Origin: a virus
Direction: 5' to 3' (one strand)
Virus record (IMG/VR): IMGVR_UViG_3300005512_000043
Location: 1 to 56,401 of that record
Length of the DNA stretch: 56,401 bases
Notes under the pieces: model-generated
What the model was told of the DNA's origin: nothing
The model's database searches: none
What the model saw: the letters and a program-made list of their open reading frames with translations, nothing else
Shown: positions 6,058 through 33,954 of the stretch, in pieces
How positions within the stretch are numbered: the stretch's first letter is position 1
Layout: each line of letters starts with the position of its first letter
Position numbers and translations under genes: made by a program

Positions 6058-6398
6058 CAGTTGGCCTCCATCACCGCGACGATGGCGCGGCAGAGGGCCA
6101 GGTTGAGGGTCGTCGCGGACACAGCAACAGCAGGCCCCGCTGTGATGATGTACCAACCACCTGCACATCGCAGGATGTTGACGATTGCGCAATGCTGCTC
6201 CAGCCACTTCACCATCTCGCCCACGAGCGAGTCGGCGCCCTCGTAGTCAGCAACACAGATTTCACCACCCGGCTTTAGCCAGGGCCGAATAAGGCTCCCT
6301 TGATGCCGCACGTTGTAGTTCAGTCGCTTCAGCCCCAGCGCCACCGCGACCCGTTCGGAGAGTGGGTCATGAGCATCGTTGAATGGGGTGTCAGCCAT
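6057..6398 (-). CDS. Hypothetical protein (113 aa)
   Basis: ORF track. TGATG coupling at both ends. Confidence 0.6.
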   Translation of the reverse strand: MADTPFNDAHDPLSERVAVALGLKRLNYNVRHQGSLIRPWLKPGGEICVADYEGADSLVGEMVKWLEQHCAIVNILRCAGGWYIITAGPAVAVSATTLNLALCRAIVAVMEAN

Positions 6399-6754
6399 CA
6401 GTTGTTCTCCAGGAACGCGCGGGCAACGGCCTCGGGGAAGGTTGTGCCGACGTACGACTTGATCTCATCACCGCCGTTGATCCACAGATCGCATCGGTAG
6501 CTCACCACGTCGCCGTTGTTACTGAAACTGTGCAAACTCGGTTGGTAGCCCGCCTTCACCAGCCGCCGCACCAGCTCCCCCATATTCGCCCAAGCTTCGT
6601 CGGTGTCGCCGGTGAAGTCTGAGCAATCATCCTGCGTCGCCCACGAACAATCATCACGCAGGCGTGCCCAGTACGATTGCATGAAGTGTGGTGGAGCCAC
6701 GTACTCCCACCCGCACGCCTTCGCGCACCGCTCGTTGACCTGGGCGTCAGTCAT
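6398..6754 (-). CDS. Hypothetical protein (118 aa)
   Basis: Start moved to the ATG at 6754 (MTDAQVNERCAKACGWEY...), with ATGA overlap to the upstream gene. The remaining 284 N-terminal codons of the 402-aa track ORF are an Arg-rich shadow of 6751-7950. Confidence 0.6.
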   Translation of the reverse strand: MTDAQVNERCAKACGWEYVAPPHFMQSYWARLRDDCSWATQDDCSDFTGDTDEAWANMGELVRRLVKAGYQPSLHSFSNNGDVVSYRCDLWINGGDEIKSYVGTTFPEAVARAFLENN

Positions 6755-29547: not shown

Positions 29548-30371
29548 TGCTCTGTCCTTTCGAGTTGGGCGAGCACCACCTCGGTGGCACCCGCGAGCGT
29601 CCTAACGTCGGTGTCGATGAGCACGTCGTACCCACGTCGCATAGGCTCGGGTAACTTACGCACGCTACCGAGGCCTGGATTCGCGGGCTTGGGCACCACG
29701 CGATCGACCGCGGCGTGCGTAATGCGTCGAATGAACCCGACCTCGGCGCAGGCCTCGGCAACCGCCTCGATGTTCAGCGGCTCGTCGGGTTGCTTGACCA
29801 CGAGTTCCTGCACGAAGGATGAATTACCGTCCCAGAGTCGAGCCACCGACCAGAACGTCGTGATCTCAACCGCGACGCCCATCGAACCCAGAACGTCGGC
29901 GAGGACCACCGCGGCGGCTCCTCTATAGACCAGGTTCTCCGGTGACTCGAAGTGGATCGTGACTGAGTTAACCGCGATGCGCACGAGTGTCTTCTCGCGA
30001 AATACGCGAGTAAGGCCGCTCCAGCCCTGAGGATCACGCCGAAGCCAGGCCTCGGACTCTAGCTCATCGCCGTCCTCCAATCGCCGGCGCAGCTTGCGTC
30101 GCTTGCGCTCGGGCGGCTGGATCTGCCCCTCGATCCGCTCGCGCACCGCCTCGATGGCATCGCGTACTCGCGCGTTGCCGCGCTGCAGGTGCGACTCGAG
30201 GTCGCCGAGGGTCATGTAGTTGTAGAACTTGTTCGCGCGATCGTGCAAGTGGCGGCTTGCCTCGTGAGCCCCGTACGGTGTGTTCGCCTCGCCCTTGCAC
30301 GCGTACTCGAACAGCGCGCTGAGCGAGTCGAACGTCACCACGTCGATGTCGTTTGTTCTCGTGGGCTTCAT
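29544..30371 (-). CDS. Partner of the AAA+ ATPase, degenerate vWA/CobT-like (275 aa)
   Basis: ATGA-coupled to the AAA+ gene. The beta-alpha segment TLVRIAVNSVTIHFESPEN...AAAVVLADVLGSMGVAVEI looks vWA-like but lacks a clear DxSxS MIDAS motif. Confidence 0.4.
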   Translation of the reverse strand: MKPTRTNDIDVVTFDSLSALFEYACKGEANTPYGAHEASRHLHDRANKFYNYMTLGDLESHLQRGNARVRDAIEAVRERIEGQIQPPERKRRKLRRRLEDGDELESEAWLRRDPQGWSGLTRVFREKTLVRIAVNSVTIHFESPENLVYRGAAAVVLADVLGSMGVAVEITTFWSVARLWDGNSSFVQELVVKQPDEPLNIEAVAEACAEVGFIRRITHAAVDRVVPKPANPGLGSVRKLPEPMRRGYDVLIDTDVRTLAGATEVVLAQLERTEQ

Positions 30372-31618
30372 GCGTCACCTCTGATTCTGCGCTGCTCGTC
30401 GGCGGACCAGCCCTCGAAAAACGTGCTCTTCACGAGCGCGAAGTCGGCACCGGCTTTGAGTAGCTTGGCGCCGTCCTCTACGTTGCGAGTGGACATGAGT
30501 CGCTGTAGCTTCGCTTCCGCGATCCGCATACGCACGCCCCAGCACCACGCGAGCCACTGCCCCGCGGTCGCCTCATCGTCCAGAATGGCCTCGACGATCG
30601 CACGCTCGAGATCCTGGTCGAAGTCCACGGTCACGGTGCCCATCGTGAACCGATTCAGCGTCGCCGCGTCGAGACGATTGCGACCGACGTACACGCGATC
30701 GGCCCCGTGGCCGTACGTGTTCGCCGCCGCGATGATGACGCAGTCGGGGTGCTGCTCGTATGGCTCGGGTCGAGCGAACGGAATGGACAGCTTGCGATTT
30801 GCGATCGCAGCGTTGACTTGCACGAGCAGATTCGGGTCGGAGCCGTCGATCTCATCGAGCAAGTGCACGCCGCCGCTCGTGTACGTGTGCACGAACGGAG
30901 ACGGCGCATACTTCCAGTTACCGTCCTCGTCTGGCAGCGTGCGACCCAGAAGAACCGACTCGCTCACGCCCTCACTCATGGAGTTGAACGTGAACGGAAG
31001 CTCGAGGGCCTTCGCGAGTTGAGCTGCGAGAAACGTCTTCCCGGAGCCCGATGGACCCACGAGTAGAAGCGGTAGCCCCGCGGATACCTTGAGCATGGAC
31101 TCACGAAAGCTCTTGTGAAGCGTCTCGCCGTCGAGCTCAACCTTGGAGTCGCGCTGCTGCACGACCACGGTGATGTTCGGCTTCTTGCCGACCTCATCTC
31201 GCACGATGGCGCGAACGTCGTCCTCCGTCGTGATCGCGTCCTCGTCCTCGACGTTCAACTCGTCGAACACCTGTCTCGCGAGTCGCTTGATGTCGGCCTC
31301 GTCCACGTAGGCTTTCTTCTCGCCAACGTCCTCGATGCTGACAGTCACCTCGCCGGGGAGCTTGTTGCCCTCGCTATCGTACGCGTACGACATGCGGAGT
31401 CCCCGCTCGCGTGCAGAGCCGACGCGCTTCCACGCGCCCGAGCCCTCGTTGAACTGCTTGCGTCGCCGAGCGACCTTCGCCGGCGACCGCACGGAGGAGT
31501 CGGGGTAGTGGGACTGTACAATCGTAACGATCTCCTCGTCCGTGAGCTTAGGCGAGTCGTCCGCCTGCTCGTTGCGCATGAGGAGCCTCTCTAGCAATCT
31601 GTTCACCGTCCTTGCCAT
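30368..31618 (-). CDS. AAA+ ATPase of the MoxR/CobS (AAA_5) type (416 aa)
   Basis: Motifs are LLLVGPSGSGKTFLAAQLAKAL (Walker A), GGVHLLDEIDGSDPN (Walker B) and RLDAATLNRF (sensor/arginine region). ATG at 31618 shares one base with the upstream stop. Confidence 0.8.
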   Translation of the reverse strand: MARTVNRLLERLLMRNEQADDSPKLTDEEIVTIVQSHYPDSSVRSPAKVARRRKQFNEGSGAWKRVGSARERGLRMSYAYDSEGNKLPGEVTVSIEDVGEKKAYVDEADIKRLARQVFDELNVEDEDAITTEDDVRAIVRDEVGKKPNITVVVQQRDSKVELDGETLHKSFRESMLKVSAGLPLLLVGPSGSGKTFLAAQLAKALELPFTFNSMSEGVSESVLLGRTLPDEDGNWKYAPSPFVHTYTSGGVHLLDEIDGSDPNLLVQVNAAIANRKLSIPFARPEPYEQHPDCVIIAAANTYGHGADRVYVGRNRLDAATLNRFTMGTVTVDFDQDLERAIVEAILDDEATAGQWLAWCWGVRMRIAEAKLQRLMSTRNVEDGAKLLKAGADFALVKSTFFEGWSADEQRRIRGDA

Positions 31619-31908
31619 CACGCACCCCCGATCTGCGCCGCCAGGCGCTTGATCTCGTCGATCGTCGGGGCTGCGGCCTTAACCTGCAACGCCTTGAGAG
31701 CCTCGCGGACCTCGGGGAGTTGCTGTTTCGCCGTAGCGTTGGCGGCCACCATGGCCTCCTTCTTCGCTACGGCTGCGGCGATGATCTCGTCCTGGGCCGC
31801 CAAGCGGCGTTCCAGCAGCGAGTCATCCGCATCCCGCTCAAGATTCCTGACTCTCGCTCTCGCGATCTTCAGGTTAATCCTGAGCGCCTCGTCATCGATG
31901 CGCTTCAT
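31618..31908 (-). CDS. Hypothetical coiled-coil protein (96 aa)
   Basis: AAGGAG SD upstream of the ATG at 31908. This is the first cistron downstream of hammerhead copy 31926-31989. Confidence 0.65.
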   Translation of the reverse strand: MKRIDDEALRINLKIARARVRNLERDADDSLLERRLAAQDEIIAAAVAKKEAMVAANATAKQQLPEVREALKALQVKAAAPTIDEIKRLAAQIGGA

Positions 31909-31925
31909 GACTGTCTCCTTTCTGT

Positions 31926-31989
31926 CGGCCTGTCTCGTCAGCGCCCGCTAGGCCACGGCGGGCGGACGGGCCCCGCGGCCCGTTTCGAC
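31926..31989 (-). ncRNA. Type II hammerhead ribozyme candidate (copy D)
   Basis: Minus strand reads GUC GAAAC GGGCC-GCGG-GGCCC GUC CGCCCGC-CGUGGCCUA-GCGGGCG CUGACGA GAC AGGCCG. The core is complete, with stem III 7 bp, stem I 7 bp and stem II 3 bp. The stem I loop UGGCCU pairs with the 3' tail AGGCCG. It starts 1 nt after the stop at 31991; predicted cleavage is 3' of the C encoded at 31965. Confidence 0.8.
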
Positions 31990-31990
31990 G

Positions 31991-32221
31991 CTAGTCATTG
32001 AGGACGTGCACGATCTTGTTGCTGGAGTGGCAGTTGTAGGCCCAGCCAGCGACCTCGTTGCTTCCCGCGTAGTAGATGCGGTGGCACTTACGCATCACGT
32101 AGCCGTCCACCTTGAACGTCGTCGGGAAATAACCAGGCGGCCACTCCAAGTCCGACGCTTCCACGACTCCAAGCCGCGCGGTCTGCCAGTCTACTACGCT
32201 CTTGTCTGTGACTAACACCAT
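31991..32221 (-). CDS. Hypothetical protein (76 aa)
   Basis: AAGGAG SD 9 nt upstream of the ATG at 32221. Flanked on both sides by hammerhead candidates. Confidence 0.65.
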   Translation of the reverse strand: MVLVTDKSVVDWQTARLGVVEASDLEWPPGYFPTTFKVDGYVMRKCHRIYYAGSNEVAGWAYNCHSSNKIVHVLND

Positions 32222-32239
32222 GTTCTATGCTCCTTTCGT

Positions 32240-32299
32240 CGGGCTGCTCATCAGGTCGGCCTCGCCCAAGGGCCGACGACGCCCCGAAGGGCGTTTCGC
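32240..32299 (-). ncRNA. Type II hammerhead ribozyme candidate (copy C)
   Basis: Minus strand reads GC GAAAC GCCC-UUCG-GGGC GUC GUCGGCC-CUUGGGCGA-GGCCGAC CUGAUGA GCA GCCCG. The core is complete, with stem III 6 bp, stem I 7 bp and stem II 2 bp. The loop UGGGC pairs with the tail GCCCG. It starts 1 nt after the stop at 32301; predicted cleavage is 3' of the C encoded at 32278. Confidence 0.75.
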
Positions 32300-32300
32300 T

Positions 32301-32582
32301 TCACTGCTCGCGCTTCTCCCACTCCTCGAGGAGTGCGAGACCGTTGTTCACGGCCTCGAGCTGGATCGTTAGGTGCATCCGCACCTGCTGCAGGTACACG
32401 CTCGCGGCACGAGCGTTGCCGTCGCGAAGGCGATGGCTGACCTTGATCGGGTTGGCACGGGCCACGAACGTCGTAAACTTGTTCAGCCACTTGCCCGTGC
32501 CGAGAACTCTCTCGACTGCCGCGGAGAATAAGTGCGGCGTCCTGAGCTCCTCGACCCACTTGGTGCTCTCGATCGTTGACAT
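32301..32582 (-). CDS. Hypothetical protein (93 aa)
   Basis: Start moved to the ATG at 32582 (MSTIESTKW...), with AAAGGA 7 nt upstream. The track start at 32612 is the AUG inside the CUGAUGA ribozyme core. Confidence 0.65.
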   Translation of the reverse strand: MSTIESTKWVEELRTPHLFSAAVERVLGTGKWLNKFTTFVARANPIKVSHRLRDGNARAASVYLQQVRMHLTIQLEAVNNGLALLEEWEKREQ

Positions 32583-32598
32583 GCTGTCATCCTTTCGT

Positions 32599-32665
32599 TC
32601 GAGCTGGCTCATCAGGCCGCGAGTGCTCGATGCTCGCGACGACGGGCCCGAAGGCCCGTTTCGCC
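32599..32665 (-). ncRNA. Type II hammerhead ribozyme candidate (copy B)
   Basis: Minus strand reads GGC GAAAC GGGCC-UUCG-GGCCC GUC GUCGCGAG-CAUCGAGCA-CUCGCGGC CUGAUGA GCCA GCUCGA. The core is complete, with stem III 7 bp, stem I 8 bp (one G-U) and stem II 3 bp. The loop UCGAGC pairs with the tail GCUCGA (6 bp). It starts 4 nt after the stop at 32670; predicted cleavage is 3' of the C encoded at 32641. Confidence 0.8.
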
Positions 32666-32669
32666 GAGT

Positions 32670-33098
32670 TTACTTCTTGATCAGCTCCGCGATCTCCGTC
32701 TGGGTGAGACCCGCGTCGACGAGCTGCTGCTTGAGGTCGCGCATCCGATCCTTCGCGCGCTTGACCTTCTCGGCCTTCTTCGCCCCGCGTATCTTCTCGC
32801 GCTCGGCCTTCTTCGCCTCGCGCTCGGCCTTCTTCGCCTCGTGCTCAGCCGCGGTGTTCAGGCGGACAACCTTCTTGTCTACCTGATCCTGGAGCTTGCC
32901 GGCGAACTCCTTCACGGCGCCGACGCGCTTCAGGGCCGCGTTGGTGTCCACACCCTTCTTGAGTGCGGCCCCGAGTTCACTGATCAAGTCGTCGCATGCC
33001 TTGCGGAATGCGGCAATCGACAACTCGACCTTGACGGCTCGGTCATCGTTCTTGGTCTCAGCCTTCTTGGCCACAGTAGCTTTGCTCTTCTTCGACAT
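32670..33098 (-). CDS. Lys/Ala/Glu-rich basic protein, possibly nucleic-acid binding (142 aa)
   Basis: MSKKSKATVAKKAETKNDD...KKAEREAKKAEREKIRGAKKAEKVKRAKD. AAAAGGA SD upstream. This is the first cistron after the long leader. Confidence 0.65.
   Translation of the reverse strand: MSKKSKATVAKKAETKNDDRAVKVELSIAAFRKACDDLISELGAALKKGVDTNAALKRVGAVKEFAGKLQDQVDKKVVRLNTAAEHEAKKAEREAKKAEREKIRGAKKAEKVKRAKDRMRDLKQQLVDAGLTQTEIAELIKK
32798..32839. repeat. Perfect 21-bp tandem duplication inside the basic-protein gene
   Basis: cgcgctcggccttcttcgcct occurs twice (32798-32818 and 32819-32839), encoding the repeated AKKAERE heptad. Confidence 0.9.
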
Positions 33099-33158
33099 GA
33101 CTGTTGTCCTTTTGCGAGCGAGTGTATTCCGCCGCGATGCTCGCCGATCGCGGTAGAG

Positions 33159-33219
33159 CGAGCTGTCATCATCAGGCCGGGTAGCTCATCTCCCGACGAC
33201 GGGCCTTGCGGCCCGTTTC
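33159..33219 (-). ncRNA. Hammerhead-like element in the 5' leader (copy A, stem II degenerate)
   Basis: Minus strand reads (AAAUC) GAAAC GGGCC-GCAA-GGCCC GUC GUCGGG-AGAUGAGCUA-CCCGGC CUGAUGA UGAC AGCUCG. The core, stem III (7 bp), stem I (6 bp) and the loop/tail pairing (UGAGCU:AGCUCG) are present. Positions 10.1/11.1 are U/C and no stem II is evident. Confidence 0.55.
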
Positions 33220-33537
33220 GATTTGGTAGGAGAACAGGTGCATGTCCGTCCGCTTCGCTACTCAGTCGAGTCTGCTGCGTGCGCTTTACGCCTCCCGCCT
33301 CTCGGCCATCGGCAACGCCGCGAACCAGCATTCGTGCGCCGGTGCTCCGGCTCCAGCTCGCTCGCCTTTCGCTCGTCGGCTAACTTGTCAATTCGACCCG
33401 ACTGGCCCGCCCCGCCAAGCGCCCAGAATCGCAAGGCTAGCGGCTACACGATCAACGCCCCGGGAGCAAGCGGCCGTGTTGGTCAATCCAAAACTCATAG
33501 CTGTATTATCGACCAAACAGGCCCCGGCTGTCCATAG

Positions 33538-33644
33538 CTGTTTAAGTCTCGGCGAAATCACAAGTTATAGAGGCTATACCCGCGGCTTCCCCGGCTCCCG
33601 AAGGCGAGGCCGCTTGAGCTAACTATAGTGTTTTCAGGCACTTA
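33538..33644 (-). promoter_or_regulatory. Conserved intergenic motif, copy 2 (split version)
   Basis: Minus strand has TAAGTGCCTGAAAACACTA (33644-33626) and, 76 nt downstream, AGACTTAAACAG (33549-33538). The same two blocks are joined, sharing one base, at 14232-14261. It lies about 530 nt upstream of the first early cistron. Confidence 0.45.
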
Positions 33645-33747
33645 GCGACGTAGTCTATGCGAGAAAAACGCCTCTAAGTCGTGACATGCACCGGGTTTAT
33701 CGGGGTCCATACGCGGCCGCTGCGGGCCGCCGCCCCGGATCGGCTGG

Positions 33748-33954
33748 CTAGTCGACTTCCGCGTCGGCGTCGATTCTATCGGCTGCCAAGCGGCATACGC
33801 GGGAGGCCTCGGCCTCCTCGACCGTGTATAGAATCGAGAGGACTCGCTCATCTCCGACCTTCGCACGTTTCTGCATGATCACGACAGCATGCTCGCATCG
33901 TTGATCGAGTTCTCGCACGAGGTCGTCTGTCTCAACCAGCTCAAGCTCCGACAT
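33748..33954 (-). CDS. Hypothetical protein (68 aa), last gene of the structural block
   Basis: Start moved to the ATG at 33954 (MSELELVETDD...), with a 14-nt overlap of the upstream gene. Confidence 0.5.
   Translation of the reverse strand: MSELELVETDDLVRELDQRCEHAVVIMQKRAKVGDERVLSILYTVEEAEASRVCRLAADRIDADAEVD

Follow-up and report, generated by a model that had tools for sequence, protein, structure and literature searches.

Can a hammerhead ribozyme that lies in an untranslated leader, away from any stop codon and seemingly without a stem II, be a complete member of its family, and if so, what would it do there? The question is raised by IMG/VR virus record IMGVR_UViG_3300005512_000043, which we analysed over its full 56,401 nucleotides (nt; hereafter the window), and in particular by one of its hammerhead copies, HH4, which lies on the minus strand at 33157..33223. 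A sequence-only reading of the locus had recognized a fourth hammerhead of one family but could draw no stem II for it, and had left three explanations: a decayed copy, a ribozyme whose stem II is supplied from a distance or in trans, or a regulated version. All three are built on the absence of stem II and lose their premise, because a two-pair stem II is present once a single uridine next to the core is read as an insertion. We propose that HH4 is probably a complete type II hammerhead, with the inserted U, a two-pair stem II and a pseudoknot, that it stands in a leader of ~400 nt which it would cut off, and that it is at the same time a joint of cassette gain or loss.

HH4 has an intact type II hammerhead core

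Searched with Rfam at curated thresholds, the whole window gives exactly four matches, all to RF02276 (Hammerhead_II), all on the minus strand and all inside 1.3 kb. HH4 aligns to model positions 1-66 of 66 and scores 40.3 bits, above the gathering score of 37 and with E = 8e-5 over the whole window, and it is recovered as well by our own descriptor scan; it is a further type II hammerhead of the known family, in a frequent and little-remarked core variant. The window contains three copies of the stem III pattern GAAACGGGCC..GGCCCGUC, where shuffled sequences lead one to expect 0.00.

Read 5' to 3' on the minus strand, 33223-33157 begins AAUC GAAAC GGGCC GCAA GGCCC GUC GUCGGG AGAUGAGCUA and continues CCCGGC CUGAUGA U GAC AGCUCG CU, which bears out the layout of core and hairpins given by the sequence-only reading. 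GAAAC (33219-33215) supplies G12, A13 and A14 (33217..33219), CUGAUGA (33169..33175) supplies C3 to A9 in the required form C3-U4-G5-A6-N7-G8-A9, and GUC (33200-33198) is the N-U-H triplet ending in C17 (C33198), with cleavage predicted between C33198 and G33197 from the triplet's place in the Rfam alignment and the mechanism of the family. Stem III is a hairpin of 7 base pairs (bp), ACGGGCC-GCAA-GGCCCGU (33199..33216), that includes the A15.1-U16.1 pair (A33216:U33199), and stem I (33176..33197) is formed by GUCGGG (33197-33192) and CCCGGC (33181-33176) around a 10-nt loop, AGAUGAGCUA (33191-33182). Stems I and III are thus loop-closed and the 5' and 3' flanks form the open stem II, which is the type II topology. 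Predicted pairing probabilities are 0.81-1.0 for stem III in leader contexts of up to 668 nt (mean 0.97 in a context of ±120 nt) and 0.84-0.88 for stem I in the leader contexts (0.96 in the ±120-nt context).

As a separate observation, HH4 is 89% identical over 54 nt (33167-33220) to hammerheads on two unrelated viral contigs (L011 19-71 and L108 4854-4906) and only 80% identical to its own neighbour HH3, a match to the unrelated contigs that could reflect either strong constraint or horizontal spread of the ribozyme.

A one-base insertion brings stem II into register

The residues flanking the core are U33168 and C33220, as had been noted, and in the register without an insertion only one G.U pair is possible. 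When U33168 is read as a one-base insertion between A9 and G10.1, the 3' strand (33165..33167, minus strand) meets the 5' strand (33220..33222) with G33167 (10.1) paired to C33220 (11.1) and A33166 (10.2) paired to U33221 (11.2), followed by an A.C mismatch between A33222 (11.3) and the unpaired C33165 (10.3). The canonical G10.1-C11.1 pair next to the core exists in HH4 only in this register.

To place the variant within its family, type II hammerheads were gathered in two ways, by a pattern scan of viral contigs and by a descriptor scan (GAAA, a hairpin ending U-H, a second hairpin, CUGANGA) of all fetched loci, which together gave 92 distinct phage ribozyme sequences. A single U stands between A9 and G10.1 in 30 of them, and in these the three bases after the U pair with the three bases before GAAA, covarying as GCC:GGC (22 times), GUC:GAC (six times) and GGC:GCC (once). 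One such ribozyme, on contig L055, is a near twin of HH4, with GUC, loop UGAGC and then CUGAUGA-U-GAC-A-GCUC; given this near identity, HH4 is one base away from a common subtype. A stem II of two pairs is likewise found in six of 49 ribozymes without the insertion, including HH1, the best scorer of the window, and two-pair stems II, like a pseudoknot between loop I and the 3' tail, have been described as common and typical, respectively, among type II ribozymes (PMC3088659). A U after A9 together with a two-pair stem II is therefore a normal form of the ribozyme, and hammerhead scans should permit that insertion.

The printed alignment of RF02276 sets two stem II pairs one column 5' of the canonical C11.1/G10.1 pair and treats ribozymes with three-pair stems or the U insert as insertions, so that the alignment alone does not reveal the stem II register.

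The pairing between loop and tail that the sequence-only reading had drawn also stands. Loop I residues UGAGCU (33188-33183) face the 3' tail AGCUCG (33159..33164) with five Watson-Crick pairs, GAGCU (33187-33183) with AGCUC (33164-33160), and one wobble, U33188.G33159. Across the family, a ribozyme's own tail matches its own loop at a mean of 4.73 complementary bases, compared with 2.41 when tails are dealt from other ribozymes. In HH4, as in the other members of the family, this pseudoknot of 5-6 bp would hold stems I and II together.

The end of the local stem II is also where an alternative partner would begin. A 10-nt complement of the tail, GAGCGAGCUG (33354..33363, minus strand), matches 33165-33156 perfectly and starts exactly at position 10.3, so that it could lengthen stem II, with 132 nt inserted in between, or tune cleavage by competing with the pseudoknot; folding programs unable to model pseudoknots give this pairing an equilibrium probability of 0.3-1.0, and the hexamers GCGAGC/GCTCGC reach their peak density of the window at the leader locus. 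The significance of the match is nevertheless marginal, since 11 of 500 shuffles equal it when the tail is tested alone and 86 of 500 when the whole ribozyme is considered, in a test chosen after the match had been seen. It occurs in the window phage only: in the related phage L353, introduced below, no more than 5-6 leader bases are complementary to the hammerhead tails. A conserved spacer hairpin, moreover, accounts for two of the hexamers, and a conserved local helix is predicted to have sequestered 33363-33354 by the time transcription reaches the ribozyme. With a local two-pair stem II already in place and the sole distal complement missing from L353, HH4 does not have the marks of a split or distal hammerhead; the complement is probably coincidental, completion or regulation of stem II from afar is a very improbable account, and nothing that we found speaks for a regulated version.

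A related phage keeps a hammerhead in the same leader

Contig L353 is the sole related phage found to carry the window's leader. It also has the single homologue (68% identical) of the 142-codon protein encoded directly downstream of HH4 and shares the tail gene DUF2793 at 77% nucleotide identity. Its layout runs from a promoter-like site through the leader to a hammerhead, HHA (1716-1784, 33.0 bits), a 166-codon gene, a second hammerhead, HHB (2302-2368, 38.8 bits), a 60-nt spacer, the 142-codon homologue, a third hammerhead, HHC (2871-2943, 35.0 bits), and a 76-codon homologue. The window has, in the same direction, the promoter-like site, the leader, HH4, the 142-codon gene, HH3, a 103-codon gene, HH1, a 76-codon gene, HH2 and a 96-codon gene. 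The U insert of HH4 recurs in HHB and HHC.

HHA occupies the same leader position as HH4, with E = 4e-4, the same AUC 5' strand and a two-pair stem II, and the two copies share the flank ..CAUGCAC..CCA(A/G)AUC GAAAC. Where the sequences differ, they differ in a manner that preserves structure: stem III of the two phages differs by one compensatory flip of G:C to C:G, and the pseudoknot covaries, as GAGCC:GGCUC in HHA and GAGCU:AGCUC in HH4.

Both arrangements recur in other assemblies. L353 and three further contigs (L360, L361, L362) from different samples or assemblies are 99.4-100% identical (99.4-99.7% in the comparisons with L353), and window positions 30314-33806 exist as an identical copy on a separate contig of the Joint Genome Institute (JGI). 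The single-nucleotide polymorphisms (SNPs) among the L353-type contigs all fall in coding DNA, in the tail gene and the 166-codon gene; none is found in the leader (three other contigs) or in HHA (two of them).

HH4 would detach a conserved, non-coding leader

Essentially all genes of this phage genome lie on the minus strand, in the order terminase, head and tail genes, a gap of 649 nt (33747-33099), four small genes, an ATPase, DUF7192 and the replication genes. Every open frame in 33099-33747, on both strands, has negative codon scores and flat G+C by codon position, and the leader is accordingly non-coding; a hidden gene, considered as a candidate, was ruled out on the same two measures. 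The four small genes (142, 103, 76 and 96 codons), which belong to no known family, are by contrast coding-like, with a third-position G+C of 0.80-0.85 and positive codon scores. HH4 thus lies, as had been stated, in an untranslated leader whose next start codon is at 33098, with no stop codon of a coding-like frame just upstream.

The earlier estimate of a leader of ~0.5 kb can be refined to ~400 nt. A consensus scan finds the promoter-like sequence TGGACA-18 nt-GATAAT at 33505..33534 on the minus strand, matching at 10 of 12 positions; both hexamers are kept in L353 (1363-1391) with a spacer of 17 nt, and G+C dips locally at the site. If this putative promoter is used, we infer a transcript start near 33497 and a leader of which cleavage would detach ~300 nt. 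In the window only, two copies of ACAGCUAUG (33541-33533 and 33504-33496) flank the promoter-like site.

The part of the leader directly 5' of HH4 (33224..33402, minus strand, aligned with L353 1534-1714) is an apparently structured domain that holds the most conserved blocks of the intergenic region, TTGACAAGTTAGC (13/13 identical) and CGUAAA(G/C)CGCACGCAGCAGA (20/21 identical). Its helices comprise 40 pairs, of which eight are compensatory and none broken between the two sequences, and a shared multibranch fold is predicted from those same two. No Rfam family matches the leader even at a permissive threshold, and neither the leader nor the 3' cleavage product is unusually stable (z = +0.27 and -0.60). 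Between HH4 and the first gene, the RNAalifold consensus with L353 contains a spacer hairpin, GCGAGC (33144-33139):GCUCGC (33119-33114), at 33114..33144, with one compensatory pair in this two-sequence comparison, G:C in the window and A:U in L353 (GCAAGC:GCUUGC). The Shine-Dalgarno sequence AAGGA (33111-33107) and the AUG (33098-33096) of the 142-codon gene follow at 33096..33111, read from the sequence and conserved in L353, and the ribosome-binding site is predicted to be unpaired in the 3' product.

In the mechanism that we propose, transcription from the promoter-like site would yield the ~400-nt leader with HH4 inside it, and self-cleavage after C33198 would remove ~300 nt of conserved, apparently structured RNA, in agreement with the earlier suggestion that an active HH4 would detach the leader from the body of the mRNA. 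The 5' product would be a leader RNA of ~300 nt with the stem III hairpin at its 3' end, and the 3' product would have its 5'-hydroxyl end immediately at the stem I hairpin, with the spacer hairpin and the ribosome-binding site after it. Together with HH3 (32598..32666, 41.7 bits, predicted cleavage after C32641), HH1 (32238..32301, 50.3 bits, after C32278, stem II of 2 bp) and HH2 (31924..31990, 44.1 bits, after C31965), all Rfam matches on the minus strand, HH4 would divide the transcript into pieces of one gene each, 557, 363 and 313 nt long, that start with a stem I hairpin and end with a stem III hairpin.

The conserved ~180-nt domain that cleavage would release invites a different emphasis, in which the leader hammerhead would serve mainly to generate the 3' end of an independent structured RNA, and the trimming of the mRNA would be secondary. 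This RNA would extend over ~300 nt between the start near 33497 and C33198, with the stem III hairpin and a cyclic phosphate at its 3' end. The 180 nt before HH4 do hold the most conserved blocks of the intergenic region, in a shared fold with eight compensatory pairs and none broken, both phages place the hammerhead within ~10 nt of the 3' end of the domain whichever gene comes next, and the leader and HHA are free of the SNPs seen in the coding DNA of the L353-type contigs. Yet the structure is predicted from the only two sequences available, with counts that lean towards structure; the window leader alone has unexceptional stability, no further copies of it were found, and the conserved blocks could equally be DNA sites such as operators. 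Such an RNA would also be compatible with mRNA processing, and we consider it unlikely to be the main purpose of the ribozyme.

HH4 as a hybrid at a probable cassette joint

HH4 resembles different L353 hammerheads along its length. In the 85 alignment columns that precede the ribozyme core on its 5' side, the first two residues (AU) of the AUC stem II strand among them, it is 64% identical to HHA and 33% to HHB; over stem I and loop I the relation is reversed, with 62% identity to HHA and 91% to HHB; and the 60-nt spacer with its ribosome-binding site is absent in HHA and homologous to that of HHB. The U insert, too, is common to HH4 and HHB and is not found in HHA. The switch from HHA-like to HHB-like sequence places a breakpoint between the 5' strand of stem II and stem I. 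Judged from these alignments, HH4 is a hybrid that takes its 5' side from the leader hammerhead and its 3' side from the hammerhead preceding the 142-codon gene. Either two ribozymes underwent exchange and the 166-codon gene was lost, or the gene entered through an exchange at the leader ribozyme.

A hybrid origin explains three oddities of HH4 together, namely the lack of an upstream stop codon, the long downstream spacer and a third pair of stem II whose two strands differ in history; the unusual placement and the weak third pair would then have a historical cause in cassette gain or loss. Position 10.2:11.2 is paired in HH4 (A:U) and in HHB (C:G) despite their differing 5' strands, which suggests from sequence that stem II has been kept functional.

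The second insertion or deletion between the two phages has the same form. HHC is 66% identical to HH3 and 39% to HH1 on its 5' side, whereas its tail is 85% identical to HH1 and 60% to HH3, and its downstream gene likewise matches that of HH1 better than that of HH3 (60% versus 25%). With an HH3-like 5' part and an HH1-like 3' part in HHC, the 103-codon gene and one ribozyme form a cassette found only in the window (32238-32666). HHC carries the U insert and HH3, with the same stem II, does not. The two events that separate the window from L353, at the 166-codon and 103-codon genes, thus both have their breakpoints inside hammerheads (n = 2 events). An assembly artefact is unlikely as the cause of the hybrid because both arrangements recur on the other contigs described above, and the exact runs shared between copies are only ~12 nt long.

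In the window, the four ribozymes bound the genes of 142, 103 and 76 codons, and the 96-codon gene follows the last; none of these small genes has a homologue in the distant relatives that share the tail genes and the ATPase. A comparable pattern is found in an unrelated viral lineage (loci L002-L119), where one ribozyme is present in 76 copies: 71 share the downstream 200 nt, in which the conserved sequence starts ACAGCGACAACAUGAGCGCCCCCCGG, and at least seven unrelated classes are represented among the upstream 200-nt sequences, so that this ribozyme sits exactly at a mosaic junction. We tentatively suggest that the hammerheads of this phage group may be the recombination joints of a system of single-gene cassettes, a generalization that we would put somewhat short of even chances, in which exchange between copies would produce hybrids such as HH4 and HHC, and in which the requirement that every 5' half be compatible with every 3' half would explain both the stereotyped short stem II (G-Y-C with G-R-C) and the tolerance of the U. 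In a text search of a literature collection, no paper was listed that proposes such a role for hammerheads, which is not proof of novelty. What the comparison yields is two genomes in which ribozyme copies mark both of the cassette gain or loss events found; if the pattern were general, the long-noted clustering of these ribozymes around small variable phage genes would have a further explanation in addition to mRNA processing.

Several observations weigh against HH4 being a complete, conserved processing element. Of the 30 ribozymes with the U insert, HH4 alone has a mismatch at the third pair of stem II, and with just a G:C and an A:U pair beside the insertion its stem II ranks among the weakest of the family; our literature search gave no published test of the U insert in a type II hammerhead. 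Folding programs blind to pseudoknots pair the HH4 tail with other segments. The conservation of a leader hammerhead rests on one related phage lineage, whose HHA scores 33.0 bits, less than the gathering score of 37. When viral, metagenome and genome collections were scanned with an ATPase profile, ~230 loci were obtained, eight of them with the tail-to-ATPase gene order; none of these eight has a hammerhead in the post-tail gap or the leader domain. The transcript start and the effect of a 5'-hydroxyl hairpin on the fate of the mRNA are inferences.

Some of these points would also fit an inactive copy in decay, left over from a hammerhead behind a gene since lost, with the A.C mismatch and the U as its first erosion: the unique third-pair mismatch and the empty post-tail gaps of the same-order relatives, to which may be added that HH4 scores lowest of the four copies and stands outside the usual packing of stop codon, ribozyme and ribosome-binding site. 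Among 100 distinct hammerhead contexts with enough flank, a coding-length frame ends within 10 nt of GAAA in 88, and HH4 is among the 12 exceptions; HH1-HH3 are followed directly by GAAAGGA and a start codon, and HH4 lies ~55 nt before its ribosome-binding site. Erosion, however, has left the pseudoknot, both hairpins and every core position intact; the U insert is a variant that recurs often and with covariation, and no sign of damage; two-pair stems II are common in the family set and in earlier work (PMC3088659); the 10.2:11.2 pair is kept on differing 5' strands; and L353 retains a hammerhead at the matching leader position with compensatory changes, which speaks against a relic also by the standard of the sequence-only reading. 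Decay is therefore distinctly improbable, and we retain the reading of HH4 as a complete ribozyme in a detachable leader.

Comparison with known hammerheads and phage cassettes

HH4 shares its core with the type II hammerheads of phages and prophages (RF02276; Perreault et al. 2011, PMC3088659), along with hairpin-closed stems I and III, a short open stem II and the pseudoknot between loop I and tail. There, as here, several copies flank single small genes of unknown function on one transcript, and in prophages, too, hammerheads flank single genes (PMC3088659). HH4 departs from the usual type II ribozyme in lying in a leader instead of directly after a stop codon, in its distance from the ribosome-binding site and in the mismatch at the third pair of stem II. 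Type II copies other than HH4 cleave in vivo and in vitro (PMC8782182, PMC3088659), among them hammerheads near phage-like genes that cleave in vivo in Desulfovibrio vulgaris (PMC8782182).

Two other groups tolerate or conserve one extra residue at the core position of the HH4 insert. The plus-strand hammerhead of chrysanthemum chlorotic mottle viroid tolerates an extra A (A10) at A9/G10.1 and cleaves 3-4 times faster with a U there (PMC3705267), and hammerheads of Penelope-like elements have a conserved nucleotide between A9 and G10.1 (PMC4209133). The viroid ribozyme is of type III and the Penelope-like ones are type I ribozymes of eukaryotic retroelements, whereas the insert of the HH4 kind is a U in phage type II ribozymes; and, in contrast to those inserts, the phage U is polymorphic between orthologous copies, being absent from HH3 and present in HHC.

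A parallel in position is HHphage of haloviruses HF1 and HF2: this hammerhead, too, precedes the first gene of an early polycistronic transcript as part of its leader, and a transcript 5' end maps to the ribozyme site (PMC3088659). HHphage differs in having insertions near C3 and in lying 13 nt from the start codon, whereas HH4 has a consensus C3-A9 and 99 nt from cleavage site to AUG. The array that we propose around HH4 fits both this mapped 5' end and the processing role put forward for prophage hammerhead arrays (PMC3088659). By analogy, HH4 may also be likened to the RiboJ insulator (a satellite-RNA hammerhead plus hairpin set in a 5' untranslated region, PMC6206723), which likewise removes a promoter-proximal leader, leaves a hairpin before the ribosome-binding site and defines the 5' end. 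In E. coli, transcript abundance rose ~twofold with RiboJ (PMC6206723), an engineered element that does not belong to the type II hammerheads with the pseudoknot of HH4.

As for the cassettes, the nearest parallel described is that of the PeSLs (promoter-early stem-loops) of T4-type phages, which are repeated regulatory cassettes that mediate modular shuffling (Arbiol et al. 2010, PMC2839356). Both systems place a short repeated motif between small non-essential genes of a variable region, with the breakpoints of insertions and deletions in the motif. A PeSL is an early promoter with a terminator stem-loop, whereas the motif here is a self-cleaving ribozyme, with two such events in two phage lineages, and no promoter-like or terminator-like site was found at the hammerhead copies; the hammerhead cassettes resemble PeSLs in their evolution and are not PeSLs themselves.

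Neighbouring features and distant relatives

Beyond L353, relatives of the locus are remote. A nucleotide search of the region against GenBank phages gave no match, and protein searches of the same phages gave distant ATPase relatives only, with none for a plus-strand frame of 126 codons in the leader. Scans of viral contigs with single proteins gave no relatives, and neither the exact HH4 pattern nor two leader patterns were found in viral contigs. Relatives found through the tail protein (66-56% identity) have a different layout downstream, and those found through the ATPase reach at most ~59% amino-acid identity (56-59%, by two measures) and carry type II hammerheads at varying places among their early genes, with none in the post-tail gap. 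One same-order distant relative, L123, has a hammerhead-like match at 6350-6419 (32.8 bits, under threshold) within a called gene at 6124-6441, which points either to an overlong gene call or to a ribozyme that shares its site with coding sequence.

The window has no tRNAs. The hexamers GCGAGC/GCTCGC are densest in the 56-kb window at 33114-33365, with five in 280 nt, a count reached in four of 5612 sliding windows, all at the leader locus. An attenuator-like role for the four GCGAGC/GCUCGC motifs was considered and set aside, with L353 backing the spacer pair only.

The first gene after HH4, of 142 codons (32670..33098, minus strand), has coding-like codon statistics, and its product has no match in Pfam or PHROG. 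The protein contains a tandem repeat, AKKAEREAKKAERE (window 32790-32850, minus strand), that is visible in the DNA and kept in the L353 homologue. The closest genomic relatives of the ATPase (L271-L288) are mostly binned as Planctomycetota (Phycisphaerae, Pirellulales, Planctomycetales), and on the strength of these sequence matches the host of the phage may be a planctomycete.

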